DNA of 64,000 nucleotides. Source: Pachysolen tannophilus NRRL Y-2460 (Eukaryota). Shown here piece after piece: positions 27,536 to 60,888 of the stretch (position 1 is its first letter; every line of letters starts with the position of its first letter). A model generated the notes under the pieces. It had not been told where the DNA came from. It did not search any database and was given only the letters and a program-made list of their open reading frames with translations. The DNA lies in assembly GCA_001661245.1 (NCBI GenBank), contig KV454011.1, positions 1,266,724 to 1,330,723 on the forward strand, written 5' to 3'. A program made the position numbers and the translations under genes.

Positions 27536-29422
27536 TTACCTCAATTGCATAAATGCATCTAGTAAAACTGAAGGGGGTCCATTGTCACTCTTATTTTTTT
27601 CAAAAACGTTCCAGAATCGTAAAGTTTCATCTCCAGCGCCAGTGACAATTGTTTGTCCATCCGGTGACATTGCCAAATATAGCACCCTATAAGTGTGTCC
27701 TGTTAAGGAAGCAACTTGTTGCATTGACGGATATTTCCAAACAACAATTTGATTTTTAGAATATCCATGTGTAGATACCAATTCATTTGAATTTTTGGAC
27801 CAAGCCAAATTACAAACTTGTGAACCTGTATCTATATCGTTTAATTTAGTACCACTTATTGTATTCCAAATCTTTATATGCCTATCTTGAGTACCTCCTC
27901 CAGAGGCTAATATTCCTCTCAGATGAGGTGACCAACTTATAGCTTTCACTGCGGCATTATGATCATTAAACTTGTACAAAGGTTTATCATTTAAACCTTC
28001 CCATACATACAATTTATTATCGTTACCACCTGAAGCTAACTTATTTTCTTCGACATTCCATTTCAATCCACAAACTTCTTGTTTATGTGCTTCCAATCTT
28101 GTCATGAAATGTTGAGGTTCTCTAACATCTCTATGTAAGATAGATCTATCCCTAGAACCTGAACTTAAAATATGTTCATTCCAAGAAGCAGATGATACTC
28201 TTGATGAATGTCCAGTCATTGCTCTTGTTCTCTTACAACTTGCAGCATCCCATATTTCTACTAAGCCAGTATTTGTTCCAACAGCAACATGACTTCCAGA
28301 ACCAATCCATGATATACTTGTTACTGAATCATTTTCTCCTAAATCACATAATTTTTCAACAACTCCTGAAGAAGCATTCCAAAGATATACACATGATCCC
28401 AACCCAACTCCCAAGATATCTGTTGAGCCCCAATCAACTAAATTTAAATAAAAATCATCAGCTAAATCAGGAGCATCTAATACTCTATATGGTACTTTTG
28501 ATATACTTCTTGGTTTTTTTTGAGGAGATAATAATAATCTTTGAGAATCCCTTCTTACAGGAGACAACGAATATAAGTCATTTTGTATATCTAATGAAGA
28601 AGAATTGGGTCTACTTTTAGAAGGTGATTGATAAGTAAATAAATTTGCATTTTGTCTTGGTGTTGTGGCCATCTTATTATCATTACCAAAATTGCCACCA
28701 TTCCCGTTACCATTGAAATTACTATTTGAATTAATTGAAGCAGTTGTTGATCTTGGAGGTGTTCTCAGATGATTATGATGATGAGATGAACTTGATGTAG
28801 AATTTGATGTTGAAGAACTTGGTCTTGTAAGATTTAAATTATTTATACCGCTTGAATTTTTTAAATTTGCCGTTGCTAAAGGAACATTATCCCCAAATAA
28901 TTCTGCTTTAAGAACAGTATTAAATGTTCTATTTGCCTCTTCTTCTCTTTGATAATCTATTTCATTTTCATTTATTTGATTATTGTTATTACCATTGCCA
29001 TTACCATTACCATTATTATTAATATTATTAATATTATTATTATTGTTGTTGTGGTTATTAATATTATTATTTATACTATTATTATCAAGATTCAATAAAT
29101 TATCATTCCCTATCCCACTATTACGTTTCCTCAAATTGAAAACTTCATCATTACTTAAATTAAAAGCAGCTTGTAAATCTATTCCTGTCCTGTTCGGTAT
29201 AAATCTATCACTATATATTGTAGTTTTTCTTCTTGGAGTTGTTGGTGATTTCAACAATGGGTTTAATGCTGTATTCTGAAGTGATGGAGGATTCAATCTT
29301 GCAGTCGTCTTTGAGGGGGATATCGGTGTTTTCAAATTTTGGAAATCAGCATCATCATTGCTACTACTACTACTACCAGCACCATTATTATTATTATTAT
29401 TATTATTATTAGATAAAGACAT
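27536..29422 (-). CDS. CDH1: APC/C activator Cdh1 (Fizzy-related)
   Basis: C-box DRFIPNR, ISKVPYRVLDAP.LADDFYLNLVDW, WD40 repeats, GAGDETLRFW, C-terminal LR tail. First ATG 29422. Confidence 0.95.
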   Translation of the reverse strand: MSLSNNNNNNNNNGAGSSSSSNDDADFQNLKTPISPSKTTARLNPPSLQNTALNPLLKSPTTPRRKTTIYSDRFIPNRTGIDLQAAFNLSNDEVFNLRKRNSGIGNDNLLNLDNNSINNNINNHNNNNNNINNINNNGNGNGNGNNNNQINENEIDYQREEEANRTFNTVLKAELFGDNVPLATANLKNSSGINNLNLTRPSSSTSNSTSSSSHHHNHLRTPPRSTTASINSNSNFNGNGNGGNFGNDNKMATTPRQNANLFTYQSPSKSRPNSSSLDIQNDLYSLSPVRRDSQRLLLSPQKKPRSISKVPYRVLDAPDLADDFYLNLVDWGSTDILGVGLGSCVYLWNASSGVVEKLCDLGENDSVTSISWIGSGSHVAVGTNTGLVEIWDAASCKRTRAMTGHSSRVSSASWNEHILSSGSRDRSILHRDVREPQHFMTRLEAHKQEVCGLKWNVEENKLASGGNDNKLYVWEGLNDKPLYKFNDHNAAVKAISWSPHLRGILASGGGTQDRHIKIWNTISGTKLNDIDTGSQVCNLAWSKNSNELVSTHGYSKNQIVVWKYPSMQQVASLTGHTYRVLYLAMSPDGQTIVTGAGDETLRFWNVFEKNKSDNGPPSVLLDAFMQLR

Positions 29423-29650
29423 CTTTGGAAAAAGAAAAAACAAAACGAAACTTTAATCTTGCTTTAAACTCCAGCTTCTTCTTCTTCTGCTTCTTCTACT
29501 TTCTCTTCTCTCTTTCTTCTTCTTCTTCTTCTTCTTTTCCTTCTGGTTTTTTTTTATCCTCCTCTTCTTTTATTATTATCTTACTAGTTATAGCTGTCTT
29601 TTTTCTACTGATTTTAACTGTTTTGTTTGGTTTATCTTCTTTTGGTCGCA

Positions 29651-29685
<35 letters not shown>

Positions 29686-29772
29686 AAGAAACTTTTGATA
29701 ATTTAAGCACTACTATATAAACCACCTACACCTCATATACCACCTACACCATCCACACCATCTGTGACATAT

Positions 29773-29807
<35 letters not shown>

Positions 29808-29881: not shown

Positions 29882-31192
29882 TTATATATATTCCTCTTCA
29901 TCGCTTGATAACAGTTCGACACTTGTGAAATTATCTATGGTATCGAGTTCATCTAGGTCTACTGGGATGACAAAAGAGTCTCTTATTGCTAATCCACGAG
30001 CGTCGACGATATCTTTTGTTGTTATGTCTATTATGTCATTTGAATTATCATCGATATTATTTGTTAAATAATCTTCTTCTATAGCAGTATCAAATTCGTC
30101 TTCTTTTTCATCATATTCTATATTTTCTTCAATTTCAACGAAATCAGGTGCTAAAGCACTCCATTTTTGTGGTATTATTATTGACCATATATATATTGTA
30201 CCACTATCTAATCCTGTACAACCAATGCAACATTTTTTAAAATTCCAATCCACATCATATAATTCTTCTTTTGGACCTTCCAAGATTTTTATTAATGAAC
30301 CCATTGAAGTTTCCCACATGTATATATCATGAGAAGAACCAAAAGTTGAAGCAATAAGATATTCACCCGTATAATTAAAAGATATAGAATTCCATTGAAG
30401 TTTATTAACAACATCTTGATATTTGTGTTCAACTTCAAAATACCATTCTTCTGATGGTGTATTTTTCAAATCAATTAAATTTATTTGTCTTATAATACGA
30501 TCTGATGAATTTATAGCCATCTTATTATTTTTATGTGAAATTGTTATACTTTTAATATTAGAATTTGTTAATTTATTTGAATAAACTATTTGAAAATTTA
30601 ATAATTCAATAATATTAATTACACCTTTTGAAGTACCTGAAATTATAAAATCTCCTGAAGGATGGAAAGTTGTATATAAAGTATATTGTTTTTTCAAAAT
30701 TCCATTTTTATCTTCATTTGTAATATTAATCTTAGAATCAATTAATTTTTGTATTATAATATCCTGATCATTTGACATATCAACAAAAATTGGATCATCT
30801 TCAAATATAGAAGCTGTAAATTGATAGTAATTTTTTGGATTTAATTCACTATTCCAAATTGCACTTTGAAAAGTTATTGATCTAATAACTTCACATGTAG
30901 ATAAATCCCATAAACAAACTTTCCAATCTCTAGAAGAACTTAACAAGAACCGACCACATTTAGACCAACTAAGTGAAGTTATAGCTCTTGTATGATTCTT
31001 CAAAATTTTAATAATACCATTGGTATCATAATCAACAATTAATATACTACCATCAATTGAACCACTAGCTAAATAATCACCTTTCCTATTAAATTTAATA
31101 AAAGTTGAATGATGATGGAAATTTAATGTATTACTTAAACTTTCTGGAAACTCTTTTGCCACTGCAAAAGGATCCAACAAAGACAAATTCAT
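29882..31192 (-). CDS. SWD1: COMPASS/Set1C subunit Swd1 (RbBP5)
   Basis: MNLSLLDPFAVAKEFPE, HKYQDVVNKLQWN, IYMWETS.GSL.KILEGPKEEL, QKWSALAPDF.EIEENIEY.EKEDEFD. First ATG 31192. Confidence 0.95.
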   Translation of the reverse strand: MNLSLLDPFAVAKEFPESLSNTLNFHHHSTFIKFNRKGDYLASGSIDGSILIVDYDTNGIIKILKNHTRAITSLSWSKCGRFLLSSSRDWKVCLWDLSTCEVIRSITFQSAIWNSELNPKNYYQFTASIFEDDPIFVDMSNDQDIIIQKLIDSKINITNEDKNGILKKQYTLYTTFHPSGDFIISGTSKGVINIIELLNFQIVYSNKLTNSNIKSITISHKNNKMAINSSDRIIRQINLIDLKNTPSEEWYFEVEHKYQDVVNKLQWNSISFNYTGEYLIASTFGSSHDIYMWETSMGSLIKILEGPKEELYDVDWNFKKCCIGCTGLDSGTIYIWSIIIPQKWSALAPDFVEIEENIEYDEKEDEFDTAIEEDYLTNNIDDNSNDIIDITTKDIVDARGLAIRDSFVIPVDLDELDTIDNFTSVELLSSDEEEYI

Positions 31193-31469: not shown

Positions 31470-32111
31470 ATGAAGAGTTTTATTGTATATTTGGTTTCTT
31501 TATTTTTTTGCCTTGCTCAAATTAATTGTTTCCATTTTTATTTGGAAGGAGGTGAAAAAAAATGTTTTTATAAAGAGTTGGTTGAAGGAACTTTATTGGT
31601 TGGTAAATATAGAGTTGAACCTTATGAAAATCAAGGTGCTTTGAATAAGGAGAAGTTGGGTGTTAATCTTTACATTGAAGAAGTTTTCGATAATGACCAT
31701 AGGGTTGTTAATCAAAAGGGACCTGCCACTGGGGATTTTACTTTTACTGCATTAGATAGTGGTGAACATAGAATTTGTTTACAACCACAATTTGGTGGAT
31801 GGTTTGCCAAGATAAAGACCAAGACCACATTTGATATCGAAGTTGGTGACAATACCATATTGGATAGTAAAAAGACAAATGAAATTCAATCGTTGAACGA
31901 AAGAATCAAGACTTTAAATAAGAAACTAGATTTGATTAAAAAAGAAGAATTATTAATTAGAGAAAGAGAAAGAGAATTTAGAGATACAAGTGAAAGAGTA
32001 AATTCAAAAGCAGTCAAATACTCAATTATTCAAGTTATTATCTTATTTAGCATTGGTTTTTACCAATTACACAGTTTAAGAGGTTTCTTTGTTAAACAAA
32101 AAATACTTTAA
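31470..32111 (+). CDS. ERP1: p24/GOLD family cargo receptor (Erp1/Erp6-like)
   Basis: Signal peptide, FHFY...EKKCF.KEL, GDFTFTA.DSGEHRIC, REREREFRDTSE.VN, C-terminal FFVKQKIL. Confidence 0.85.
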   Translation: MKSFIVYLVSLFFCLAQINCFHFYLEGGEKKCFYKELVEGTLLVGKYRVEPYENQGALNKEKLGVNLYIEEVFDNDHRVVNQKGPATGDFTFTALDSGEHRICLQPQFGGWFAKIKTKTTFDIEVGDNTILDSKKTNEIQSLNERIKTLNKKLDLIKKEELLIREREREFRDTSERVNSKAVKYSIIQVIILFSIGFYQLHSLRGFFVKQKIL

Positions 32112-32395: not shown

Positions 32396-35300
32396 ATGGA
32401 TGCAATGAGTGACTCTGGTGCTGGGGAGGAGTTAGAAGATTTTGATGTGTCATCCTCAGCGAATATGGAAATAATAGACAACGGCGCTAATTTTACCAAT
32501 TTCCATAATAATTCAGTTTTAAGCTCTCCATCAGCAACAATAGGATTATCACCTCAATCTTGTAGTGATGGAGATGTTTCCAGAGAAATATCAAGTAATT
32601 CTATTGGGCCGAGAAAGTTTCTTGATGAAAGAGCAAGTACAAGGATAGGCCAAGTATTATCCAAAGGTTATAATAGTAATGTTAACGATTATAGATTTCG
32701 TATTGAAGATCCTTCAGCATCAATAATATCAGAAAATTCAGATAATAAACTAGATTCAAACTCAATTACGACAACAGCACTGATACCGGGCTCTAGTACA
32801 GGTGCTAATAATATTCAAGCTAGCACAAGCACAAAGTCTGTCAAAATATTAAAATTGAAAAAAATTTCAAAACTACTCTATTCTGAAGAGACTGCCATTC
32901 AATATGGAAATCCAACTTCATTGACAGTTGGAGAATTAATATGCATTGGAACTTCAAAAGGTTACATTATTTTATTTGATTACAAACAAAATTTAAAAAT
33001 TGTATTGGGTAAAGATTCAAAAACATTAGAATGTGGAATTGTTACAGCTCTTGCAGTTTCAGCTGATTCTACATATATTGCTAGTGGTTTTGAAAATGGA
33101 GATATTTTTTTGTGGAATTTGAGTAAACCTTTAAAGCCAGCATTGCATGTGACAGCTGTAACACGTCAGGATTTACTGAGTGGAACAAGGGAAGGACATT
33201 TTTTAGGAAACAAGATACATCAGTTAAGTTTTGTAGGGAAAAGACATACTGCATTGATCTCATCTGATGTTAATGGGATATTATGCTTTCATAATGGTTT
33301 CAAAAATATTTTAGGAGCTCATGCAATTACCAAAAAAATTTTAGGTAAATATAATATTAATAATAATAATGAAAGAGGTTCTGCAATTTTGGCAAGTTCT
33401 GTGCTTCCTTTAGGGACCTCGATTGAACCAACAGATGATATAGGTCTAGTTTCTGTGATTGCACCAAGAGCTTTGGTTGTTATTTCTATTTATCCTGAAT
33501 TAAGAACACACTTCAAAATTGGCAGGCCAAAAGCAATAAATACAACGTCTAATATAACGGGTTGTTTAGCATGGTTGCCTGCTTTAAAATTATCTGAAGG
33601 ACGAAAAGTGCCTCCTAAATTGGTGTATTGTTGGTCAAACGTCTTGACGGTGTTAGATGTAAATTACGATTTAATTAAAAATCGAGAATCTGATGACGAA
33701 AGTTTATTATTGAAATTTGAAAACAAGAAAAGATGGATCACTGAAGAAAGTATTGTGGCAGTTCAATGGATAAATGAAAAAGTTATTTCTGTTCTAACTG
33801 CTGGTCATAGATTAATTTTGATAAACGAATTAAATATGGCTGTCTTAACTTCTGTTGATTTGCTATCAAAGCATATATTGTCACTAAATTTATTTTCAAA
33901 TAACCTGTTGAATTTAGCTAAAGAATTTTACTCGAATTCGTTTAAAGTTTACAGAAGCAAAATATTTCTTCTTGGGAAATATGAATTTTTCATAGGGTCT
34001 TTAACTAATTGGGCTGATAAATTGTTTGATATCATGAAAAATGGTGATTATATTGAAGCTTTACAAGAGTCGAGAAGTTTCTATAATGGGGATAACGACA
34101 ATTTGGTTCTATATGGCTTGCCTGACTCTGTACAAGCTAGACAAGATTTATTATATGATTACATTATTAAAATGGTTAAGGGTTCTTTAGAATATGTATT
34201 TGCAGGAACACCTTCAACAATGAGGCATATTCAAACAAGAGATCAATTCAAAACATTTTTAACAATTTTCTTAAAAATATGTTTAGATTTGAAAATAAAT
34301 AGCAAGGAAGAAGAAAATTATTACGATTTGATTTTTGAAAAATTTAAATTATTTGACTTTGATGATATTTTTTTCGAAACTTTAGAGAAATTTATATTAA
34401 AAGGTGACATAGTGCAGTTGACTCCAACAATCTTGCAACAAATGGTTGAATACTTTATCTCAAATAATAAAGGTGATGAACTAGAAGAATTAATATGTTT
34501 ATTGGATATCAAGTCGTTAGATATTGATTTGACTGTATCATTATGTCGAAAAAATCATCTTAGAGACTCTTTAGTCTTTATTTGGAATGTTTTATTAAAT
34601 GATTACATAACTCCTCTTTTTGATTTTATAAATGACATAAAAACATTATTTTATGACAAAGACCTTGATGAAACTCGAAAGACACAGCTAATTTTAGAAA
34701 CAAAAAAAGTTTACGGATATATTTCTTATGTTTTAACTGGGAGACAATATCCAACTGAAAGAATGATTGAGATAGATAAACAGAGGAAGGCAAAATTAAG
34801 CCTATATTATATTTTATTTAATGGTACGGCTGTAGGATGGCCTAAAGGAAATAAAAAATTACATATAACTCAAGATATCAAAAATGAACCAGCATTTCCG
34901 TATTTGTATTTGTTTTTGAAATTTGATTGTTTTGAAATGCTAAGTTCATTGAATGAAGCTTTTGAAGATGATATATTGAATGACGATGAACTTGAGTATG
35001 GTAGCAAAGGAGATCAAGATGAATTTCAATACAAAGTTACACGTCAATATGTTATTGATGTATTATTGGATCTATTCAATTCAAACGATTTTTCTACTTT
35101 GGACTTTACCTATTTATCCATATTTGTAGCGAGAAATTATCCGAAATTTCAACAGTTTGTTAGGCTAACTGACTCAAATTGTGAAACATTAATTGAACAC
35201 TTATGCTCCTACCCCGATATTAAACTAAAAGAAGATTGTGAGCTAAGCTTACAAAGCTTGTTATCCGTATATCATCCGTTGAATATAGATAACTTGATTT

Positions 35301-36847
35301 CTCTTTTTGAAAGTGCTGGTTTCTATGATGTTCTATTTAACGTTTACCGCTCAGAACAAAAATTTTCTAAGGTGTTGGAATTATGGTTATTTAATAAAGA
35401 AAGACTTGAAATGAAAAAAACAAATTTGACTGGTACAAATTATGATCACATTTATGACAAAAACTCGGATATTGTCAATAAATGTTTTGAGCTAACTGAT
35501 GGAAATGAAAGAGAAAGATATGAAATAATAAATTTTGTTCGAAACCATTTCAAAAGTTTTATAAATCGTGATCAAGCAAATATTGTTAAAGTTTTTAATA
35601 AATACTGTCCAAGCTTACATATAGAAATATTGAATATTAATGATGATGAGCCCTTAGTGTATGATTACTTGAAATGTTTATTTCGACTGACGAATGGAGA
35701 TAGTCATTTGATAAAAATTGATCCTGATTTGAAAACTTTATTTATTGAATTATTATCGAAGTATGATCATAAAAGTTTATATAAATATTTAACGGAGTCT
35801 GATTTATCAAAAATTGATTTGGAAAATATATCTCTGATCTTGAAAAAAAATAAAGCGATTGATAGTCTAGTGTTTTTGCTAGACAGAAATAATGATCATC
35901 TTCGTTGTATTCAAGAAGTTGTTGAGTATATGAACTTTCTTGCATCAGAATTAATTAAGCTAATTAATGAGGATAATTCAAATTTGGAATTGGATAAGAT
36001 TGAAAACGAATTATGGGACTATTTGTTCTTGGGTATTAAAATATGCAACTATGATGACCCAAAATCATCAAAAAAGATGAACACAAATGATTTAACTATT
36101 AACGAGCAATTGTGGCTCATGCTCATAGAATCTACAGTTGGAATATTAAGGACAGTTAATAATAAAATCCTGAAAGATAGTTTCTCTGTTTCTTCAACAA
36201 GCCAAAAAATCTTGAACACCATAAAAAGATTGATACAATGTGCATTTACAAATTTAATTAATTCAAGATCTGGAGATGAATTAGTATCTGGACTAATAGA
36301 TAATAATGATAAGGGTCAAAATTCAGATAGTTTTTCGATTGAAACCTTGAAGCCTAAAAAATTGTCGTTTTTCAAGATATTCACAAAATTTTTAAATGAT
36401 TCCTCTACAGAAATAACGAGATTAGGAGATGTCAGATTAATTTTGAAAGAGATTTTTTTGTCGTACAGTTATGAGGCCGTTTTTTTAAAGCTTATATTAA
36501 ATTTAGTTGATGATAAAATTTTCCGAGAATTTGAAGAATTGAGTACTTTAAAATTGAAAGGCTTAACACCTAAAAAAGATCATTGCGATGCATGTGATAA
36601 AATACTATGGGGTAATGACATTAGCAAAGAAATATATTACTCTTGGAGAAATGATAAACTCGATAGTATTGAAATTTCACAAAAATTACGTTCGAAAAAA
36701 CCAGAAATTCTTTCTGTTGCTAATGGAAAAAGTTTTGAAAATTCTTTACTGATTGTTATCTTTAAATGTGGACACGGATATCATTCTCAATGTTTGAATA
36801 ATTTAGGAGGTAAGAAAGAAAAGACGTGCATTATTTGTGATGAGTGA
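32396..36847 (+). CDS. VPS8: CORVET complex subunit Vps8
   Basis: YG.PT..IGTSKG...FDY.Q.L, VTALA.SAD.T.IASG, LEELICLLD...LDID, Y.YISY.LTGRQYP, EP.FPYL...LKFD, C-terminal RING (FKCGHGYH..CL..C.IC). Confidence 0.93.
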   Translation: MDAMSDSGAGEELEDFDVSSSANMEIIDNGANFTNFHNNSVLSSPSATIGLSPQSCSDGDVSREISSNSIGPRKFLDERASTRIGQVLSKGYNSNVNDYRFRIEDPSASIISENSDNKLDSNSITTTALIPGSSTGANNIQASTSTKSVKILKLKKISKLLYSEETAIQYGNPTSLTVGELICIGTSKGYIILFDYKQNLKIVLGKDSKTLECGIVTALAVSADSTYIASGFENGDIFLWNLSKPLKPALHVTAVTRQDLLSGTREGHFLGNKIHQLSFVGKRHTALISSDVNGILCFHNGFKNILGAHAITKKILGKYNINNNNERGSAILASSVLPLGTSIEPTDDIGLVSVIAPRALVVISIYPELRTHFKIGRPKAINTTSNITGCLAWLPALKLSEGRKVPPKLVYCWSNVLTVLDVNYDLIKNRESDDESLLLKFENKKRWITEESIVAVQWINEKVISVLTAGHRLILINELNMAVLTSVDLLSKHILSLNLFSNNLLNLAKEFYSNSFKVYRSKIFLLGKYEFFIGSLTNWADKLFDIMKNGDYIEALQESRSFYNGDNDNLVLYGLPDSVQARQDLLYDYIIKMVKGSLEYVFAGTPSTMRHIQTRDQFKTFLTIFLKICLDLKINSKEEENYYDLIFEKFKLFDFDDIFFETLEKFILKGDIVQLTPTILQQMVEYFISNNKGDELEELICLLDIKSLDIDLTVSLCRKNHLRDSLVFIWNVLLNDYITPLFDFINDIKTLFYDKDLDETRKTQLILETKKVYGYISYVLTGRQYPTERMIEIDKQRKAKLSLYYILFNGTAVGWPKGNKKLHITQDIKNEPAFPYLYLFLKFDCFEMLSSLNEAFEDDILNDDELEYGSKGDQDEFQYKVTRQYVIDVLLDLFNSNDFSTLDFTYLSIFVARNYPKFQQFVRLTDSNCETLIEHLCSYPDIKLKEDCELSLQSLLSVYHPLNIDNLISLFESAGFYDVLFNVYRSEQKFSKVLELWLFNKERLEMKKTNLTGTNYDHIYDKNSDIVNKCFELTDGNERERYEIINFVRNHFKSFINRDQANIVKVFNKYCPSLHIEILNINDDEPLVYDYLKCLFRLTNGDSHLIKIDPDLKTLFIELLSKYDHKSLYKYLTESDLSKIDLENISLILKKNKAIDSLVFLLDRNNDHLRCIQEVVEYMNFLASELIKLINEDNSNLELDKIENELWDYLFLGIKICNYDDPKSSKKMNTNDLTINEQLWLMLIESTVGILRTVNNKILKDSFSVSSTSQKILNTIKRLIQCAFTNLINSRSGDELVSGLIDNNDKGQNSDSFSIETLKPKKLSFFKIFTKFLNDSSTEITRLGDVRLILKEIFLSYSYEAVFLKLILNLVDDKIFREFEELSTLKLKGLTPKKDHCDACDKILWGNDISKEIYYSWRNDKLDSIEISQKLRSKKPEILSVANGKSFENSLLIVIFKCGHGYHSQCLNNLGGKKEKTCIICDE

Positions 36848-37292
36848 AAATTTTTAATTTCTTATATCATCAATGGGAATGGTATAGAAAGTACTTTCTA
36901 ATAAACTATAAACATTACAAAAATCTCGCTAAATGAAAGCTGTAAGCAAAATAGGTATGTATTATTAATATTAAGGTTGTAAATCAGATTGAAAATATTT
37001 CATATGTTTCTTTGTGAAGTTCTGCATGCATAAATTACACGCGTGCGGCTCCAGATCTATGCATTTGCGTCACATTGATCTCTGAGGAATTTACACAAAA
37101 CAACGTTCAACACTGATGGAGAATCAAGATCAAATTGAACAATTACCAATGTAAAGTGTTGCTTTTCTTCTTTATTCTTTTTTTTCTTGTTTTTTTTTTT
37201 TCTTTGTCAAAGTTAATATTCTTGACATCAAAATTCGATATTCAAGTTAACTTTACTTTACCGTAACGTTGAATTTTGAACAGTCAAATAAA

Positions 37293-46300: not shown

Positions 46301-49300
46301 TTGGAAGTGTTGAATTTATTATCCCATTAAAAGGTTGGGAGCCCTGTTACTCATTATGTAAAAGAATTAGATGAAAGTGAGTGGTGATACAGACCTTTGA
46401 GATTTACAATTCCACCGGAAAGCCAAAACATATTTTTGTATAAGATTGATTGGTCCAAGTTTTCTTCGAAGCAGAACGAATAGAGTACTATTCTTTCAAG
46501 ACTTCTATACTTCTTGAAGATTTTAAATTAGTTTAGTCGTCTGAGCTATCTTTGCAATTGTTTTCTTTTTATCAACCCCTGTGACTACTGAACCTTGCGG
46601 TGATGGCTATAAATTTAATTTTTAATTAAATCAAACGCTTCGGTGAATATTTTGAATTGTATTCTTGCTGTAAATCCAACAAACCGTTGCAGTATCTTGC
46701 CATTTTAAAATTTAAATAGTTCTGCCCAATTAATAAATAGTCTTCATTTCAATAAAAACTATTAGTAGCACCCCACACAAAAAATTAGTTAATTCCCATT
46801 TTAATTATGGGTAAAGTCTGCAAGATGGAAGATTTTGAACTGCACAGAGTCAAGTTCGTATTTACCATACGATTCGGGAACAAAAAACTATCTTAAGACC
46901 AAAACTTCTGATTTCATACAATTTGGGAGATCACTCATTTCTGATCAAGTACCTAACCCTTCAACAATGTGAAAAATGAGCGGTTGTTTTTTGTAGAGAA
47001 TTTCACACATAATGAAAATGAAATGAAACGATCAGTAAACTAGTTAATAGTGGATAAAGCAGCAAAGTCAGCCAGGCACATTCGATACATGTAGCCATCA
47101 AATATTTCCAGTAGTGTCTCAATATAGTGTATTCTTTTTGGCGTGTCATCAGAGGCAATCTTTAATTATGAAATAACGGGGACATTAAGTAAATCAGCAT
47201 GAATTGTGAAACACATGTTTGGCCAATCGATAGGAGGTACTAAATCCCATTTCTGATGATTCCGAATGACCACATTTTGAATTACATACTTCAATTGCAG
47301 CAATTAGGGCCAAGTCCAAGTTAAAGGAATCTTTAGAAAAATTGAAAAATCAGGTGAATTAAATGATTTCTTAATAAGATAAGAAAGATAAAACTTTCTA
47401 TTATAATTACAAAACGCAAGTTTTATTTATCTACAGGAAACAATGCTTCTATTCTATCAATAGTTCTTTTTTTATAACCTCTGAGTGAGGAGAACCAAAA
47501 AGAAGATAAACAGTTAAACGAGGAGTAACACTTCGCAGTTTTTAGTAAACTAAAGTTATTTTTCTTCTGGTAACAATTTCCAGTACCTTATTATTGTCAG
47601 ACACGAGTCGAGATGTAAATTTGAACTTTATTAATTCCTGGAAATCCCTGAGGAAGCTTTCTGTTTCGATATTCTAGTAATCTCTCGATGGGGTAAAGCT
47701 ATTTGATTATCATATTGATCCAGCGGGTTGCATACTTCTTTTTCCATTTTTATTTAATATGCAAAGAAAGATGATTAAAGATTTCAAAGGTTATGAGTAA
47801 ATACTTCTTCTGTCTTACCACCATTAAATGAAAAACTTTCTGCCCTACGGCTTTTGGTGAGAAGTTTTTGCTTTCAGTATTTCTCATTTGAACACAAAAA
47901 TGTTTTTGTAGGAAATGCAGTATACTCTTTGACAAAAGTATTTTTCAGGTTGTGTCTCTTATTTATATCTAAATAACGAGTTATGGACAGTTCAATGATT
48001 ATAAGGTTTCTTTAAAAATCAGACATGTTAACTCAACTGCTATTTCCTTTTTGTCTTTTCTTTTTGAAATTTTTTTTTTTCATCATGGACGAACTCTTTA
48101 TTCAACATAAAATGTACATACTTTTTTGTAAGAATCTTGGGAAATGTAGTTTTTAATGGAAATTTGATTGTATCCGAAATAAAGCTATAGGAAGAGAAAG
48201 AAAAAGCTTCCAACTATGTAAAGTGTGACGGCAGTCGGAGAAATTTAATAGTATGGAAATAAGTAATCTCAAAAAGGAGATGAAGTCTCCTTGATGACAG
48301 TGGATGCAACAACGCTATTTGATTTTGAATATTAGTATTGTTTTGAGATTTAGAAGAAATTTAATTTGAGTCGCAATGGCAGTTTTAATATGGGTTCTTG
48401 GAAAAGTTCGTAAATCGTATGTGGATAAAATATATTTCAGAGTTTTCCCTCTTCTTGACTCACATCTTTTCTTTGATGAAATCAAGTGTTTGACTAAGAC
48501 TGCCTTGTTTCCCATAAGGTCAAAAGTGAATGATAGATCTTTAATGAAAGTTTAGAGGAATCTCATAATCTATGAGAATTATCTTTGAATTGAGGCACTG
48601 CAAACTTTTGTAATACAAAGTGAGTAATAAGATTTAAAGAGTTTCTCCACTCAGTAATCTTTCACTCAACCACACATTTTCGTTGGACCTACATAGTTAC
48701 AGGATTAGCTGAATATATTCAAAGGCTTGAAACGTAATCTATCTAAAGCTTTCGTTTAGCAGGAAAAAGTCACGGTATATGAGCTCCTAACCTCTTTCGA
48801 ACCATACTTTAGTTTACTGTACTGATTAGCTTCGACAGATTTACATATTTGTTTCCATTAACGTATAACCTATCTGTTTCTGCTACCTTGTCGATATTGC
48901 CGGTCAACTTCTTTTAGTGTAAGTGATAGTATAGTTTATGTAATTTTCGCTTAACGCTCTATAGTAGGTTGGAACTTTCATTGTATTGTGTCATGTAGAA
49001 GATTTTTAAACGGTACTCCCTAAAAAAAAAAAAATTAGATTGTTAAGAAACGATTTGGTTTTCTGTTTTCAAAAAACGTAAATTTTTCCTGTAGTAATTG
49101 ATTGTTTTTTATGTATTTAAAGACTTTTGCGAGTACAAACCTTTCTGATTGTGAAGTATTAAATGCAAATGAAAAAATATAGGGAATATTCTCTAGATTA
49201 AATGAAATTAGTTATAATGAAGTTTTATAAAGTCAATGGTATTATTATTTTAAAATATTTGTAACTATATATTAGAGATAGCTAGAAAGAGTCTTATGAA

Positions 49301-50470
49301 GGAAACTTGAAAAAGGAGTATGTATGTCTGTAATACCTTTTGGAACTGAGCCTAAAAGGGCACCTGAATTATTGGTTCTGGGGTATTTTCCAATTTTATT
49401 GTATTTTGGGAAGGAAATAAATCTATCGGCAAAGGGCTATAGGGTGAATTTTTTATTTGAATTCTAGTTTGAGAGCTTGAACAACTTTCTGATCTAAGTT
49501 AATAGCGTTAATTAGTTATGAGATTTCAGCAGACTTGTTTAGCGAGGTAATTCTGTTCTTGCCGTCAAATGTCTAATTGGAAAAATAAATTTGAGCTACT
49601 GCTGACATAATGAGAAACACGCACATGAAAAAGTAAATTGTCAGGTTTATACGTAGTTACAAAGTACCTATTAAATACAAAGTGGTAAAATTAAAAATAT
49701 TTTTCACATAAAAGAGTCAAAAAGATATGCGACTAAGTATGAAGTTGTAGTTTGTATCTACTAATTTCATTTTTGATAAGTTGTTTTTCAGTTTTGTAAA
49801 CTGAAATTGAATGTTAGATAAGAAACTGAATTCCAGTTTTGCTTAAGATTTGAATACAGAAGTAATATATTATTTATTTATATGATAGTTTAGTGCTGAT
49901 GGTTTTACATTTTTATTATTCCCAATTAATATCAATGAAGAGGCATCAAAAGTTTTTATTTTACTTTTGTTCTTTTGTATTGAAGTAATTCATAAGAATA
50001 TTGTATGAAATGCAAACTTTGACTCTTCCCTGTAGAGAATTAATTATTGAAATAGATAAGGTTTCCTTATTATTTGCATTTTTTATACATAAAACTAAAG
50101 AATGACGCTGTTTACTTAAAACAAACGTAAAATTTTTTTTTTGTTATATCGTTATATTTTGTTGTCTTAATCAATGCAAGATCAATCAGTTATCGGTATA
50201 ATTAAATGGAATCTTTTCTGTACTATGCTTTCCTTCTCCATGCTGCATAATTAAATCTTTACATAATATACGTACGCATCCTATTTAGGTAAATTTTTAG
50301 CTTGGTAGTTAGCAAAACACCAATTACCCTACCTAAGGCGAGATGCAACAATATTTATTATAATATTTATGTAGACTAAAAATTTAGTATAATTTGAAGT
50401 CTTGAAAAAAACAGTTTTTAAAAAATATTTTATTTATGTTCACATTAGTTATTTTGGTGTCATTACTGAC
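43340..50470. repeat. Long degenerate inverted repeat (axis ~47450) filling a 7.9-kb gene desert; candidate regional centromere
   Basis: Colinear reverse-complement anchors found by eye: 43346/50464, 44572/49543, 45585/48950, 45832/48753, 46188/48554, 47157/47783, 47223/47692. No credible ORFs; flanked by orthologues of centromere-adjacent genes. Confidence 0.75.
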
Positions 50471-50745
50471 TTTCAGTAGATAAACAAGAGTAGTGTGGAT
50501 ATTAAATGAAAACTGATTAATTTTTCCGTTCGTTTCACATGTGTAGTTTTCTTTTTTTTTCTTTTTAATTTTTTTTTATTTTTTTTTATTTACCTTATTT
50601 TTTTTTAGTCTGAAAAAAGCAAGAAAACTAAAAATTAATTAATATTATATATAAAAGTTATATAAGTTTAAGATTCTTTATGACCTTGTATTATTTTAAA
50701 TTAGAAAAAACTGGTAAATACCAACCAATTATGACTTTGTGAGAA

Positions 50746-52071
50746 ATGAAATTTGCTAAGCTTTTCGAGCAAGTTTTGCAAGAGGAAGGAATACCACCGG
50801 AGTGGGTGCACACAGCTATTCAATACAAGTCTTTAAAAAAATGCATTAATAGGATTGTTGATGAATTGGATGAAATAGGATTGAAGAAGAAAACGTTATC
50901 ATTTTTGTTGGAGGATGGAATAGAAACAGATGATGAGTTTGTGAAAGCTGATTATATTTTTGAGAAACATACTCATTCGGTGAAGCCAAAATTAATAATC
51001 ACGTTAAGACATAATCTGGAAGATAATAATGGTGAATTATGCAAAGATAAAATGACACAAGAAATAAAAGCTACTTTACAAAATATTATGGACAATGAAT
51101 TAGGATTAAAAAATGTTGGTAAAGTGGAAAAGTATATTCCGAAGATTGTTGAAGTGGATAATGATGATAATCAAGAAGTACAAATTGTAATACATTTATA
51201 TCAAGATTCAATTTTTTTCCAAATGCTATACCAGGAATTAGCAGCATTAGATGATTTGAAGAATTCACAAGAGAGTAAAATGATTCAAGAGGTACAAGAT
51301 ATTGGGTCAATAATTGGTAGTATAACTTCTCCAACTCTTAAAAAGACCGATTTACTCGTGTGGAGAGAAATTTTTAAAATGTACATAGATTCAGAAATTT
51401 TTTTCAGTACATCAGAGTTTAGTCCAGGAGAAAGATCGGTGGCACAATCTGAAGAAAGATTAGAACTTTTTTTCAGGAGAATTAAAGAAAAAAATATGTT
51501 AAAGGAATTTCACCATAAAGTGAGTGTAGAATGTTTCAACAATTTTTATAAGGTCAATATTCATTTGCTAAAAGCTTTACAATTTCAAACTTTTAATAAG
51601 ATGGCTATATTTAAAATTTTGAAAAAGTTTGATAAACAAACTTCATTAAAAGGACTGTCTGGATTCCCAAAATTAATTGAACATGATCCATTTATAAAAG
51701 AATCTTTTGCTCACACAATGTGTGCCGTCATTTCATCTAGATTACTAAATATAATACCTCAATTAGACGATTATACATGCCCCATTTGTTGCTCAGTTAC
51801 GTTCAAGCCTATAAGGTTGGATTGTGGTCATGTGTTTTGTGTGAGATGTCTTGTTAAAATGCAACGGAAAAGACAAGATAATTGTCCATTATGTAGAGAA
51901 AAAGTTGTTATGAGAGCAGATGAACATAATCTAGATCTTGCAAGATTAGAATATTTAAAATTATATTTCCCCAAGGAAACAAAAGCAAAACAATTAGAAA
52001 CGGAAAAAGAAATTGCCAAAGAACAATTTGAAGCCATTTACGGAGATCAACAGCGTTGTATCATTCAATGA
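50746..52071 (+). CDS. SPX-RING E3 ubiquitin ligase (Pqr1/NLA-like)
   Basis: MKFAK...EW...AIQYKSLKKCI (SPX N-terminus), N..AI.KILKKFDKQT, RING CPIC...KPIRL.CGH.FC..C......CPLCR. Confidence 0.9.
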   Translation: MKFAKLFEQVLQEEGIPPEWVHTAIQYKSLKKCINRIVDELDEIGLKKKTLSFLLEDGIETDDEFVKADYIFEKHTHSVKPKLIITLRHNLEDNNGELCKDKMTQEIKATLQNIMDNELGLKNVGKVEKYIPKIVEVDNDDNQEVQIVIHLYQDSIFFQMLYQELAALDDLKNSQESKMIQEVQDIGSIIGSITSPTLKKTDLLVWREIFKMYIDSEIFFSTSEFSPGERSVAQSEERLELFFRRIKEKNMLKEFHHKVSVECFNNFYKVNIHLLKALQFQTFNKMAIFKILKKFDKQTSLKGLSGFPKLIEHDPFIKESFAHTMCAVISSRLLNIIPQLDDYTCPICCSVTFKPIRLDCGHVFCVRCLVKMQRKRQDNCPLCREKVVMRADEHNLDLARLEYLKLYFPKETKAKQLETEKEIAKEQFEAIYGDQQRCIIQ

Positions 52072-52237: not shown

Positions 52238-53814
52238 ATGGATTCATCGAAAGAAATGCTGTATGGCGATAATAAAGTCAACAAGCTAGACAAGTATGAT
52301 AGACAGTTAAGACTTTGGGCATTGAATGGCCAATCAAGTTTGGAAAATGCACATATTTGTTTAATCAATGTTACAACTACAAATATTGAGTTATTGAAGA
52401 ACTTGATACTACCTGGTTGTAGCAATTTCACTATAATAGATGATAAGTTATTAGAAAAAGATCTTTCAACAAATTTTTTTTGGTCTGAGGCTGAAAGTAA
52501 TATATCAATTGTTGAAAATTTAAAAGACTTGAATCCAGATGCCAATGTTAATTTATTGGAAGAATCAATTCAAAACATATTGAATAAAAATGACATTGAA
52601 TTTTGGGAGCAATTTTCTGTAGTAATAACAGATGATTCATTGATATTTAATGATTACGAACAGAAAATAGTGGATATACTATGGCACAAGAATATACCAT
52701 TTATTAAAAATTTGAGTTATGGATTTTATGGATTTACAAAAATAGTTTTGAGGGAGCATCCAATCATAGAAACTCATCCTCAATCTTTGACTGACTTGCG
52801 AATTGATTGTCCATGGAAAGAATTGAAAGAATATATTGATTCTATAAACTTGGATGAAGCAGATTCTACTGAGCATGCCCATATACCTTACGTAATAATA
52901 TTGATCAAAAGTCTAGAAATTTGGAAATCAGAACATGATGACAAACCACCAGTGGATTACAAAGAAAAACAACAGTTCAAGAAATTAATAGAATCATTCT
53001 CAAAATATCCAAATGAACCAAATTTTGCAGAGGCTGTCCAATTTTCATGGAGAGCGTCACAATCAACTAATTTGCCAGAATCTATCAATGAACTTTTAAA
53101 CGATGTAAATGATGTTAATTTGACTACACCTTTGTTTTGGATATATGTCAAAGCTTTAAAAAAATTTTTAAAAAAAACAATGGGTATTTACCTTTATCTG
53201 GTGTATTACCAGACATGATTTCAGATACAGTTAACTACGTTAGCTTGCAAAATATTTATAGAAAAAAATTTGAAGCTGATAAGCGTATGTTTATAGACGA
53301 AGTTGAAAAGTTATTGATTTCAATTGGTAGATCCTTGGATGAAGTTGATAATGAATTAGCTGCAGCATTTTGTAAAAATTCAAGATTTATTTTAATTCAA
53401 AAAGGAACAAAATGCAAATTAAAATTGGATGATAATATAATACAGCAAATTAATAGTAAGTCTTATGATAATTATAATATTTATTTGGGATTTCTAGCCG
53501 TTGCCAATTTGAAAAAACATGATGTATGCTTAAGACCGTATTCCCCAGAAGAAAACTATACGAAATTATTCAAATCGTTAAAGGACATTTTTAAAAATAA
53601 CGGTGTGAATGAGGAAAATATAAGTGATACCTTATCCTCAGTTTTAAAAGAATTTTCCCGCTCGGGAGGTATCGAATTACATAATATTGCTTCTTTCATG
53701 GGTGGAATCGGTAGTCAAGAGGTTCTCAAACTTGTTACTGGTCAGTATATTCCACTAGATAATACTTTTGTATTTGATGGTATTAGAAGTACTTCTGAAA
53801 ATTGGAAAATTTAG
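52238..53814 (+). CDS. ULA1: NEDD8/Rub1-activating enzyme regulatory subunit (APPBP1/NAE1); split by an apparent 1-nt frameshift at ~53170-53177
   Basis: ORF1: KYDRQLRLW...GQ..LE, E.LKNLILPG, DLR...PW.EL, HAHIPY, FWI...AL. ORF2: LPLSG.LPDM.SDT..Y..LQ.IY, ELHNIASFMGG..SQE..KL.T.QY.PLDNT..FDGI. The two join at TTTTTAAAAAAAAC. Confidence 0.9.
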
Positions 53815-53974: not shown

Positions 53975-55819
53975 TCATAAGTCATCAAAATTACCTTGTA
54001 TTGCATTATTTTTTTTACTTCTCTTGTTGGATTTTACAATATCTTTCCAATCAATCAGTGCTTCTTCATCACTACTGCTTTCGTTTTCATTTGAATTCAA
54101 TTCAATTTGTTTCTTGATAGCTTCTCTTTTCCTCTTGAGCTTTTCTTTTCTAGTAGCTTTGTTCTCTTTCTGATCAGTTTTATCACTCCACGATAAATTT
54201 TTCTTTTTTTGCAATTCTTTCAATTCCCGTAATTCCTTCTTATTATTTATTTCTTTTTTTGATTTCAACTCTTCCAACTCTTTTAATCTTGACTTCTCTT
54301 TTTGGTCATCAAGATATTTGAAATTATCCATATCAAAATTCTCACATAACCAGCCACCATGAGCTAATTTGTCAACATTTCTTATTTCTGGCATTCTGGG
54401 TAATCTTAACAATCCATACATCTTTGCAATCCCAACGTAGTCTAAACTTTGCAATCTGAAAATTGATTTTGCACTATGTTTTGAATAATATCTTACAAAA
54501 CTAACGTAAGCTCTCACAGCAAGATCATGTCTTGCTCTGTCTTGCAATATCCAGTCTCTCAATACTTCATCAAATTTCGTATCCTTGGAATTTTCATATC
54601 TATAGCTCAATTCATCGATTTCTACATTTTTCACCTTCATAAAATCAATATAGTCCTCTTCTCTTCCTTCGTTTAACATCACGATTGCTCTTCCAACATT
54701 ATCTGCTCTTCCAGTTCTTCCAGATCTGTGCAAAAAAACCTCAGGATCAGTTGGTGGCTCCATTTGAATAACCAATTCGACCTCTGGAATATCTAATCCT
54801 CTTGCTGCAACATCAGTAGTAAGTAAGATTGCCTTTTCAACACTGTTTGTGAAATTTTCTAAAGTTTTTAAACGTGGTTTTGTAGGTAACTTACCATGCA
54901 AAGAAAAGAACGCCAATCCACCTGGTGACATAATATCCAAAATATCTTCTTTCAATAAACTTTTTAACATGGCATAGAAATAAGTAACCGCGGTACATGT
55001 ACTGAAATATACAATTGCTTTTTTAAAATGATATTTTGATAATATATCTACCAATGCTTTGATTTTCATTTCTGGTTTTAAAATTAAATGACTAAGACCT
55101 AGCGATGTGGGCACTATACTTTTTGATTGTTGATTATTTCTTACTACTATCTTAACTGGGTTGGTCATACCTGTTTTAAAAATAACATTCCCAGCAGCAG
55201 AAATTGTAGCAGAGAAAAGGCCAGTTCTTCTCTGTCTTGGTAACTGTTTTGTAATATTTATAACATCTTTTTCAAATCCGATATCCAATAACTTATCGGC
55301 TTCATCCAATACTAATACTTCCAAGTTACTTGTTTTAACAGAATTTGACGATAAAAAATCCAATATTCTCCCTGGAGTTCCTACTATTATTTGTGGTTTA
55401 TTTTTCAAAAAATCAGATAAATCTTCTCTCACTGACGATAGGGATCCAACTAGCAACTGTGTTTTTATAGGTACCAAATCTTCAGGATAAAATTTTAATA
55501 GTTCTTGGAAAACATTGTTAATTTGATTAGCTAATTCTCTTGTTGGTGAAATAACCATACCTATCATATGCCCTTTCTTCAAAGATTCTTGCAATTTCAC
55601 AACTTTTTCCAAGACTGGAATAGCAAATGATAATGTTTTACCGCTTCCAGTAACTGCCTCTACAACAACATCTTTATTCATAGAAAACAAAGGTATAACT
55701 GCCGCTTGAACTGGCGTCAAATTTTTATAACCAATGGATTTCAATGCATCCACTATCCAAGTCTCCAATTTATAAGGAAGTTTGTCCCAAGAAAGTGAAC
55801 CTTTAGAAGCTTCTTCCAT
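53975..55819 (-). CDS. SPB4: DEAD-box rRNA helicase Spb4 (DDX55)
   Basis: TPVQA, KDVVVEAVTGSGKTL, PTRELA, LDEAD, QRRTGLFSAT, TDVAARGLDIP, HRSGRTGR, A.VSFVRYYSKH.A.SIFRL, LLRLPRMPE. Confidence 0.95.
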   Translation of the reverse strand: MEEASKGSLSWDKLPYKLETWIVDALKSIGYKNLTPVQAAVIPLFSMNKDVVVEAVTGSGKTLSFAIPVLEKVVKLQESLKKGHMIGMVISPTRELANQINNVFQELLKFYPEDLVPIKTQLLVGSLSSVREDLSDFLKNKPQIIVGTPGRILDFLSSNSVKTSNLEVLVLDEADKLLDIGFEKDVINITKQLPRQRRTGLFSATISAAGNVIFKTGMTNPVKIVVRNNQQSKSIVPTSLGLSHLILKPEMKIKALVDILSKYHFKKAIVYFSTCTAVTYFYAMLKSLLKEDILDIMSPGGLAFFSLHGKLPTKPRLKTLENFTNSVEKAILLTTDVAARGLDIPEVELVIQMEPPTDPEVFLHRSGRTGRADNVGRAIVMLNEGREEDYIDFMKVKNVEIDELSYRYENSKDTKFDEVLRDWILQDRARHDLAVRAYVSFVRYYSKHSAKSIFRLQSLDYVGIAKMYGLLRLPRMPEIRNVDKLAHGGWLCENFDMDNFKYLDDQKEKSRLKELEELKSKKEINNKKELRELKELQKKKNLSWSDKTDQKENKATRKEKLKRKREAIKKQIELNSNENESSSDEEALIDWKDIVKSNKRSKKNNAIQGNFDDL

Positions 55820-56065
55820 TATAGCTATATCGTTCTTAAGGTTGATCTTCTATAGATATAATAATAGTGTCTTTTTGTTAATACAAATAAAATTTATCAT
55901 CATCAACTTTCTGCAAAAAAAAAAAAATTTTTTATTTTTTTAATTTTTTTTTTTTTTTTTTTTTTTTGATGTTTCAAAAAATCTTCAAGAATATCATTTT
56001 GATAAAGTTAGAATTTTTTGAACAGATCGAAGACTGTGATCAAAGAGTGTGATATATATCCACAT

Positions 56066-57487
56066 ATGTTATCCAGGACGAAGTCCTTACACTCTTATAG
56101 ACATTTAGGCTTGAGGACATTTATTTCATGGAGATTTTTAATAGACAAAATGTCACCGTATAATAAAGACAGAAAAGAAGAAATAGAGTATGAAAAATGG
56201 ACAAAGAAACAATTGATTAAAAGAATATTAGAGTTGGAAAATGGATCACCCCCTGTGCCACAAAATATAGCACAAAATGGGCCAGCTTTGAAAACATTAG
56301 CGAATGATAATGATAATGGTAATGGTAATGTAGCTATTACCACGGAGAACGGACAATTGAAGAAGAAAAAAGTATTCAATTTGGAAGATCATAATTCAAG
56401 ATTGATAGCTTTAAAGTTTGCATATTTAGGATGGAATTATCAAGGTCTAGCATTCCAAAAATCAGAAACAGATTTACCTACGGTTGAGTATCAAATTTTG
56501 AAAGCTCTAAATTTGACAAAGATGGTTTCTGGTATAGATCCTGCTAATTGTTCATTTAGTAGATGTGGTAGAACAGATAAAGGGGTAAGTGCCATGAATC
56601 AAGTTATTTCTTTGAAGGTTAGATCAAATTTAACACCAGAAGAACAAAAAGATCCTACAAATGATTCTAGAGAATTAGATTATGTGAATATTTTGAATCA
56701 AGTTCTTCCTTCAGATATAAAATTTCATGCTGTATGTTTACGACCTCCTGTTGGATTTGATGCAAGATTTAGTTGTAAATATCGTCATTATAAATATATT
56801 TTTGAAAAGCGAAATTTGGATATAAAAGCAATGTCAATTGCAGCATCTAAATTTGAAGGTGTTCATGATTTTAGGAATTTTTGTAAAATTGATGGTTCAA
56901 AGCAAATTACAAATTTTATTAGAGAAATATTTAGTGCTAAAATTGAAAAATTAAAAGAGAACGACGATGATTATTATATTTTCAACTTAAAAGGAAGTGC
57001 ATTCTTATGGCATCAGGTGCGTTGTATGATGGCAATTCTATTTTCAATTGGTCAAAAGCTTGAAAAACCTGAAATCATCGATGATTTGATGAATATTGAA
57101 AAATTTCCTAAAAAACCTGTTTATGCAATGGCTCATGATATACCTTTAGTATATTATGATTGCGAATTTGATGACGTTGAATGGACTACACCATTGAATG
57201 TAGCTAAGGAGTCAAGATCAAATGCAGGATTGAGAGCTTTGAAGTTTGACTACAACTTAAAATCTTTGATATCAAATATGATGTATGATACTTCTGTGAA
57301 ACATAGAGCTGAATTAGAAGATAGAATAACAATAAACAATGGGGATGGTAAGGGAAGAAACTCAAAAGTTTATGTTCCACTAGCTAATCGTGATTCTATC
57401 GATACCCCGGAAGTTATAAATGAAAAATGGATAACAAAAAGGAAAAAGAGAAAACTTGAAGACGGTGAAGATGATGGTAACGAATAA
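56066..57487 (+). CDS. DEG1: tRNA pseudouridine 38/39 synthase (Pus3)
   Basis: IALKFAYLGWNY.GLA.Q, SRCGRTDKGVSAMNQVISL, FDARFSC..RHY.Y, HDFRNFCK.DGSKQITN, GSAFLWHQVRCM. In-frame ATGs at 56066 and 56150. Confidence 0.95.
   Translation: MLSRTKSLHSYRHLGLRTFISWRFLIDKMSPYNKDRKEEIEYEKWTKKQLIKRILELENGSPPVPQNIAQNGPALKTLANDNDNGNGNVAITTENGQLKKKKVFNLEDHNSRLIALKFAYLGWNYQGLAFQKSETDLPTVEYQILKALNLTKMVSGIDPANCSFSRCGRTDKGVSAMNQVISLKVRSNLTPEEQKDPTNDSRELDYVNILNQVLPSDIKFHAVCLRPPVGFDARFSCKYRHYKYIFEKRNLDIKAMSIAASKFEGVHDFRNFCKIDGSKQITNFIREIFSAKIEKLKENDDDYYIFNLKGSAFLWHQVRCMMAILFSIGQKLEKPEIIDDLMNIEKFPKKPVYAMAHDIPLVYYDCEFDDVEWTTPLNVAKESRSNAGLRALKFDYNLKSLISNMMYDTSVKHRAELEDRITINNGDGKGRNSKVYVPLANRDSIDTPEVINEKWITKRKKRKLEDGEDDGNE

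Positions 57488-60857: not shown

Positions 60858-60888
<31 letters not shown>

Follow-up and report, generated by a model that had tools for sequence, protein, structure and literature searches.

A gene-free gap of 7,917 bp on contig KV454011.1 (C1) of the yeast Pachysolen tannophilus is, in our view, quite likely to be the centromere of its chromosome - a short regional one of unique DNA, with neither an inverted repeat nor a cluster of Ty5 elements. The gap occupies positions 42829-50745 (C1:1,309,552-1,317,468) of the window, by which we mean the whole stretch of 64,000 nucleotides analysed here (C1:1,266,724-1,330,723, in a genome of 12.6 Mb and 197 contigs). This reading draws on the size and uniqueness of the gap, on the finding of five such gaps, each on a contig of its own, on a switch in base skew, on neighbours of ancestral centromeres and on a short sequence motif common to the gaps. 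We take P. tannophilus to belong to the order Alaninales and to read CUG as alanine, and the translations of the window are consistent with this.

Five gaps and a shared word

The C1 gap contains neither an open reading frame (ORF) of at least 100 amino acids starting with ATG nor a transfer RNA (tRNA) gene, and a Pfam scan of its 54 stop-free segments gave nothing above cut-off. A structured RNA was considered and rejected, as the Rfam scan of the gap returned two matches only, both far below gathering score. The gap, which is free of N, is present as one copy in the whole genome. Its guanine-plus-cytosine (GC) skew climbs from quarter to quarter (-0.15, 0.00, +0.08, +0.14), with the best switch from C-rich to G-rich at ~45,300; its core has a GC content of 0.31 as against 0.256 in other intergenic DNA, and it contains few poly-A/T runs.

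The gap is one of a set. Our survey covered 911 kb picked around marker genes (including 461 of the 2,514 kb of C1) and delimited 410 ORF-free gaps, the five largest of which (6,753-8,289 bp, against a median of 421 bp and 4,669 bp for the sixth) are the five candidates and sit on five different contigs, with one only in the surveyed part of C1. Marker genes led to C3:1,309,180-1,315,932, to C2:913,194-919,989 and to a gap at C8 ~534,800-543,100, while a histone gene search uncovered the 7.6-kb gap at C7:99,620-107,249 in the Anc_CEN3 neighbourhood, which lies directly beside H2A/H2B and has both the skew switch and the motif. Direct neighbours of the five gaps are EFM5, RRP6, RER1, the H2A/H2B pair and URM1. 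Among these, RRP6 is presumably an ancestral centromere-adjacent gene; RER1, HTB2, URM1, EFM5 and the histone pair are described as centromere-adjacent in PMC12711049 or PMC13017519. All five gaps switch from C-rich to G-rich (p 0.0005-0.0025 by block shuffle) and have a core GC of 0.29-0.31, again compared with 0.256 in other intergenic DNA, and the same pattern of skew and GC has been reported at Candida albicans centromeres (Koren 2010, PMC2924309). Short motif aside, matches between the gaps are of low complexity only. With one such gap on each of five contigs, the skew switch and the shared motif, the centromere that a sequence-only reading of the window had proposed at this site finds support.

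That motif is a 10-mer, GCTCCTAACC, which a k-mer comparison found to be common to all five gaps. Six exact copies fall in the 37 kb of gaps and none in the other 874 kb examined; allowing one mismatch, the numbers are 14 in gaps and seven elsewhere in the examined DNA. Across the genome there are ten exact copies, six of them in the five gaps that make up 0.3% of it, and the longer 12-mer with one mismatch occurs eight times in gaps versus once outside, an enrichment of ~125-fold. Not one of 100 order-2 Markov simulations produced any 10-mer with at least five G/C in all five gaps. Each gap carries one or two exact copies, at relative positions of 0.25-0.75 and in both orientations. In the C1 gap, the exact copy (GGTTAGGAGCTC) lies on the minus strand at 48781-48792, with the 10-mer at 48783-48792 on the plus strand, and a mismatch search added two plus-strand copies with one mismatch each, GGTTGGGAGCCC at 46333-46344 and the 10-mer GCTTCTAACC at 44116-44125. 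Another one-mismatch copy, GCTCATAACC (44598-44607, plus strand), equals ten bases of the complement of the Ty5 primer-binding site, with no long terminal repeat (LTR) end adjoining.

Over 350 bases beside the six copies, likeness is no greater than among random gap pieces, so the word appears to be conserved alone, which suggests a protein-binding site. A 10-mer shared in this way looks new to us, and the literature matches to the motif, among those listed, are unrelated. Four exact copies lie outside the gaps, two forming a pair at C5:406,167-407,970 (1.8 kb apart, chance ~0.002) and the others standing singly, at C6:221,657 and C1:304,972; the C5 pair and the C6 copy predict where the putative centromeres of those contigs lie. 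Variant copies were seen on C4 at 256,198 and 455,673, one of them 14 kb from MET14 and one 7.4 kb from a tRNA gene at 448,204, and either could mark the C4 centromere. The five candidates with their coordinates and common word are a directly testable set in P. tannophilus, and centromeric vectors for this yeast, a xylose fermenter, could be developed from them.

As for mechanism, we envisage that Cse4 nucleosomes would occupy a few kb of the gap and that an early constitutive origin inside it would have produced the skew, as in C. albicans. The motif may have been kept by selection as the binding site of a protein helping to set or keep the centromere or the origin.

Also on C8, at 553,831-558,499 (L188), there is a 4.7-kb gap with a 720-bp direct repeat at 98.6% identity, a GC content of 0.24 and no skew switch; it may have arisen by tandem duplication or reflect an error of the assembly.

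Neighbours from two ancestral centromeres

The flanks of the C1 gap border two different ancestral centromeres, as had been claimed from the sequence: Anc_CEN4, the source of S. cerevisiae CEN1 and CEN7, on the left and Anc_CEN8, that of CEN6 and CEN16, on the right (Gordon 2011 Table 1, PMC3141009; PMC13017519). Haase 2026 (Supplementary Note 3, PMC13017519) puts Anc_CEN4 itself in the ERG26-EFM5 interval. Here, EFM5 (main exon 42100-42828, plus strand, identified by named homologues) adjoins the gap on its left and ERG26 (38463-39518, minus strand, a sterol-4-alpha-carboxylate 3-dehydrogenase match) lies 3.3 kb off, both on one side. The ten genes named beforehand are where they were said to be, with support from PDB, Pfam or named homologues except for NUP60, which gene order alone identifies, and the obvious paralogues score lower for the set of CDH1, SWD1, VPS8, ERG26, EFM5, ULA1, SPB4 and DEG1.

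From its far end inwards, the left block consists of CDH1 (27536-29422, minus strand; best PDB match Cdh1 at E 2e-154, ahead of Cdc20 at 6e-103), SWD1 (29882-31192, minus; COMPASS Swd1, E 3e-96), a p24 gene (31470-32111, plus), VPS8 (32396-36847, plus; gene-specific Pfam domain), a gene with a small product that would be secreted or anchored (37251-38220, plus; probably spliced, with a presumed exon structure), ERG26, a NUP60-like gene (39873-41537, minus) and EFM5. The p24 gene had been called ERP1/ERP6: its match is to the TMED9/alpha subfamily, which makes it a p24 alpha gene of ERP1/ERP6-like kind. For the NUP60-like ORF, Pfam and PDB searches gave no match; its name comes from the Komagataella phaffii order EFM5-NUP60-ERG26, its N-terminus probably resembles that of NUP60, and it has an intron (41352-41450) with GTAAGT, a CTAAC branch site and TAG. 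We take the S. cerevisiae counterparts to be YGL003C (CDH1), YAR003W (SWD1), YAR002C-A/YGL002W (ERP1/ERP6), YAL002W (VPS8), YGL001C (ERG26), YAR002W (NUP60) and YGR001C (EFM5). Further out, ECT1, TFG2, PRP18, CWC24 and PEX30/31 (13531-22058, families by Pfam) presumably have S. cerevisiae orthologues a few genes right of CEN7 and would add to the Anc_CEN4 neighbourhood on the left flank. GET1, CKB1, ATE1 and HIR1 are further left-flank genes (6593-10353 and 22451-24796), the first three of which we assume to belong to the left arm of S. cerevisiae chromosome VII and HIR1 to the pericentric region near CEN2. A 496-aa protein encoded at 11788-13278 (minus strand), 30 kb from the gap, has a weak Tc5/CENP-B-type DNA-binding domain (PF03221, E 0.011, under cut-off) and is probably a domesticated pogo-type factor.

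The first gene on the right of the gap is an SPX-RING gene (TRY3-like; 50746-52071, plus strand), assigned by Pfam and named homologues, which neighbours ULA1 elsewhere too, namely in K. phaffii, K. pastoris and D. fabryi. ULA1 itself (52238-53814, plus; named homologues) is split by a frame shift within an A run at ~53170-53177, where the database protein lacks residues, and which is probably an assembly error. SPB4 (53975-55819, minus; gene-specific Pfam domain) and DEG1/PUS3 (56066-57487, plus; PUS3-type (38/39) synthase at E 2e-73 versus PUS1 at 1e-14) follow, the three presumably being YPL003W, YFL002C and YFL001W in S. cerevisiae. Beyond them, a 384-aa ORF at 60753-61907 (plus strand) is of low complexity.

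This ULA1-SPB4-DEG1 group, 1.5-7 kb from the C1 gap, is only one piece of the Anc_CEN8 neighbourhood, genes of both arms of which are not found around the site, an RPN11-sized JAB gene being 0.6 Mb away. A second piece (YPI1, NIC96 and neighbours) lies ~44 kb (42-52 kb) from the C3 gap. LSP1/PIL1, HAT1, YPT1, ACT1 and SNF8 cluster at C2:1,080,568-1,105,388 as the remainder of the Anc_CEN8 left arm. At C3:1,282,951-1,304,529, YEF3 and a phospholipase B gene (named by sequence likeness) lie 5-26 kb from the C3 gap, and the same two genes flank ULA1 in two yeast genomes (L090, L092), another hint of shuffling between centromere neighbourhoods.

Since the ten flank genes form two synteny blocks, they amount to two observations rather than ten independent ones. 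We suppose that the C1 centromere descends from the one that became Anc_CEN4, and would thus sit one gene (EFM5) off its position in Saccharomycetales. The sequence-only reading had added a pericentric rearrangement in this lineage to explain why ERG26/EFM5 and NUP60/VPS8 share one side. As an event of this lineage this is not supported, because the K. phaffii order EFM5-NUP60-ERG26-x-VPS8-SWD1-ARO8 is the same as that of the window (with one unnamed gene between ERG26 and VPS8 there too), so that no rearrangement in the P. tannophilus lineage alone has to be assumed for the left flank. TRY3-ULA1-SPB4-DEG1 may have come to the right of the gap through a translocation between centromeres that were clustered, the likeliest route in our view. 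The Anc_CEN8 neighbourhood would then have been centromeric already before the rise of Saccharomycetales - a conclusion to which we give about even chances. An arm exchange, as claimed earlier, is plausible, with synteny breaks at centromeres described (Guin 2020, Ola 2020) and such exchanges common in yeasts (PMC7292649, PMC7263194), yet it requires an old Anc_CEN8. Both persistence of centromere position and arm exchange are already published: centromere location is kept over ~208 million years while structure changes and arms are exchanged (Hession 2025, PMC12711049), and centromere-linked genes have been extended to Pichiomycetes, in blocks that do not always span the same centromere (Haase 2026, PMC13017519). 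Our literature search, which most subscription papers fall outside, returned no mapped P. tannophilus centromere, no centromere beside SPB4/DEG1/ULA1 and, for Alaninales centromeres, only Haase 2026. An Anc_CEN8 block beside an outgroup candidate centromere looks new. It is a single outgroup data point that bears, if weakly, on whether Saccharomycodales lost CEN8 or Saccharomycetales gained it, which PMC13017519 leaves undecided, CEN8 being excluded from its outgroup analysis.

Weighing the alternatives

A number of observations count against our reading of the gap and of its flanks. A clear trough in GC at third codon positions (GC3) is absent at the C1 gap, whose genes have values of 0.19-0.23 with lower ones 25-35 kb leftward, and since the survey took in 461 of the 2,514 kb of C1, a second large gap on this contig is possible. 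No gap above 2.7 kb turned up in the first ten marker neighbourhoods. When 16 further ancestral centromere genes were placed blind and their distance to the nearest gap was taken, two (H2A/H2B, MPP10) lay within 30 kb (p ~0.15) and three, with NIC96 added, within 50 kb (p 0.09); this count leaves out a second H2A/H2B pair (C1), ALG8, MGM1 and other paralogues, MET14 (on C4, outside the contigs of the five gaps) and also RER1, RRP6 and URM1, the choice of which was not blind. Centromere linkage survives mainly for direct neighbour genes and decays fast, so the earlier claim that centromere position has persisted across the regional-to-point transition fits the genes right beside the gaps and weakens quickly beyond them. 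The distance from the C2 gap to HAT1, LSP1/PIL1 and SNF8 is 160-185 kb. In K. phaffii, the EFM5 block is ~1.1 Mb from CEN1, TRY3-ULA1 is at the end opposite CEN3 and SPB4/DEG1 are on chromosome 1; the idea that K. phaffii TRY3 (PAS_chr3_1152) flanks CEN3 was dropped, as by gene order TRY3-ULA1 is ~180 kb from the chromosome 3 end opposite CEN3. EFM5 is ~525 genes from the proposed CEN1 in C. lusitaniae, ULA1 more than 100 gene numbers from the CEN5 region in C. parapsilosis, and the two yeasts L090 and L092 hold ULA1-SPB4-DEG1-SNF8 with no gap above 1.4 kb in 21 kb. As to the motif, it was discovered in the same five gaps that it characterises, a backwards control pattern has four genome copies, the same number as the motif has outside the gaps, C4 has no exact copy, and the copy at C1:304,972 is 1 Mb from the C1 gap.

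Might the gap, then, be something else? That it is a strong origin of early replication, an extended regulatory region or the locus of a long RNA missing from the annotation seems improbable to us: although an origin or divergent transcription alone can yield a skew switch, a single promoter points into the gap, since EFM5 has its end there, and it also tells against this idea that five contigs have one gap of similar size each, next to a gene of an ancestral centromere and with a motif in common. Still less credible, indeed barely so, is an old inverted-repeat centromere, a degenerate 7-kb palindrome of the Komagataella or Candida tropicalis kind, for which the mirror-image base skew and one 18-bp inverted pair in the gap could be cited. 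The palindrome asserted earlier fails under k-mer and alignment tests alike: there is no long arm, inverted k-mers are not enriched at the centre (two 200-bp bins exceed z 3, at k=10 only and off centre), and the left half against the reversed right half scores at shuffle level (local 57 versus 59 +/- 9, global 250 versus 236 +/- 22). A more serious contender, which we think quite possible while leaning against it, sees the gap as a purely epigenetic centromere and the word as an origin element, the target of a transcription factor, the remnant of a decayed retroelement or a pick made by chance, dispensable for segregation. The one or two copies per gap at unlike positions and in both orientations, C4 without an exact copy and the four copies of the control pattern fit it; the enrichment of the 12-mer and the outcome of the simulations do not, and the unrelated motif flanks argue against a neutral relic.

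For the right flank, it is nearly an even bet that the gap is a centromere beside which the Anc_CEN8 block came to lie by ordinary rearrangement, CEN8 having been gained in Saccharomycetales, so that this flank would say nothing about ancestral centromeres. CEN8 is reported absent in Saccharomycodales and without counterpart among seven Phaffomycetales centromeres, so that two losses have to be assumed if CEN8 is old; in H. uvarum, RPN11, YPI1, LSP1 and DEG1 stay within seven gene numbers and no centromere is there; and the block is non-centromeric in K. phaffii, C. parapsilosis, L090 and L092. Moreover, of 11 other placeable species (several assemblies being fragmentary), just one has EFM5 on the same contig as the SPX-RING gene. 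Against this, that one species, [Candida] arabinofermentans, has both on a single 168,738-bp scaffold (~70 gene models apart), loss is to be expected in K. phaffii with its four centromeres only, and two of three Anc_CEN8 sub-blocks in P. tannophilus lie within 55 kb of candidate centromeres (C1 and C3). EFM5 directly beside the ULA1 block, the case named beforehand as one that would refute the claim, was seen in none of the species compared, which include no chromosome-level Alaninales. In a metagenome scan, a second window gene was present at six of 80 loci, and EFM5 or TRY3 at none of the 80. Two cases were not counted: Kuraishia EFM5, gene 552 of 569 on scaffold 7 (where the centromere is placed by the terminal rDNA, which end not being stated), and EFM5 of O. 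polymorpha, the first gene of its contig in two assemblies, which is too indirect.

Unlikely, to our minds, is a bolder combination: the regional centromere would be sequence-assisted, its word a one-base derivative of the Ty5 primer-binding site that selection has kept as a centromere element and that is the sole relic of an ancestral Ty5 cluster, and Anc_CEN8 would date far back, Phaffomycetales and Saccharomycodales having lost it. On its other strand the 12-mer (GGTTAGGAGCCC) differs by one base (11/12) from the Ty5 primer-binding site of Sa. ludwigii (GGTTATGAGCCC) printed in Haase 2026 Supplementary Data 1 (PMC13017519), a paper that also reports Ty5 clusters in Alaninales. However, neither a CAACA LTR end before motif copies nor LTR repeats common to the gaps were found, and the genome gave no match to the RVT_2 reverse transcriptase in a search that was weak and whose control was blank. 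Descent of the motif from Ty5 is therefore speculation. Ty5/copia remnants in the gap itself were likewise rejected, there being no RVT_2 match and no Pfam match above cut-off in the 54 segments, though very decayed relics could escape. If true, this would be a second independent co-option of Ty5, by way of the primer-binding site rather than the LTR, and it would have occurred in the class that is sister to the yeasts with point centromeres.

Comparison with known centromere types

Set beside known systems, the candidate centromere of C1 shares with the inverted-repeat type of K. phaffii and C. tropicalis a gene-free region of 6-9 kb, one per chromosome (PMC5010909, PMC7292649), and C. tropicalis carries a 12-bp centromere-enriched motif (PMC7292649); unlike these, it is without 2-kb arms, and no near-identical kb-long arms are present. 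Compared with the Ty5-cluster centromeres of Ogataea, Scheffersomyces and Saccharomycodes, likeness extends to ancestral centromere-linked neighbours and to the primer-binding-site match (PMC13017519); the P. tannophilus gaps differ in having no reverse-transcriptase match (subject to the blank control) and no shared LTR repeats, so no Ty5/LTR cluster is seen.

With the ancestor of Anc_CEN4 and Anc_CEN8 the neighbour genes are the same (PMC3141009 Table 1; PMC13017519 Note 3). That ancestor had a point centromere between ERG26 and EFM5; the P. tannophilus gap lies beyond EFM5, the CEN8 block faces it by its other end and both blocks flank one site. The ancestral order and orientation, ULA1(+) SPB4(-) DEG1(+), is presumably that of the window. 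Point centromeres, with CDEI, an AT-rich CDEII and CDEIII in ~200 bp, would not be expected in orders other than Saccharomycetales and Saccharomycodales.

In the motif-defined centromeres of Starmera and Wickerhamomyces (Hession 2025, PMC12711049), a short motif (17 bp in S. quercuum, 21 bp in W. anomalus) is almost confined to centromeric intergenic regions at an ancestral position and without inverted repeats, and the P. tannophilus gaps may be similar. Theirs are other sequences in the class Saccharomycetes, mapped by Hi-C, in regions of 1.2-2.4 kb (S. quercuum) or as tandem arrays (W. anomalus), whereas the P. tannophilus copies are single and dispersed in 7-8 kb; all five located gaps have the word, with four of its ten genome copies outside them and none on C4.

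Finally, the short regional type of C. albicans and C. dubliniensis is likewise made of gene-free, unique DNA of 4-18 kb, one region per chromosome (PMC2924309, PMC12711049). This type is characterised by Cse4/CENP-A over 3-5 kb, by a lack of transcription and by early replication. In C. albicans, Cse4 binding and origin activity have been shown; for the P. tannophilus gaps both are proposed. A negative-to-positive GC skew, raised GC and the missing GC3 trough recur at the C1 gap, and kb-scale gene-free gaps of unique sequence occur one per contig as they do there per chromosome. Where the two part company is in sequence: C. albicans centromeres have none in common, and the five P. tannophilus candidates all carry the same 10-12 bp word.

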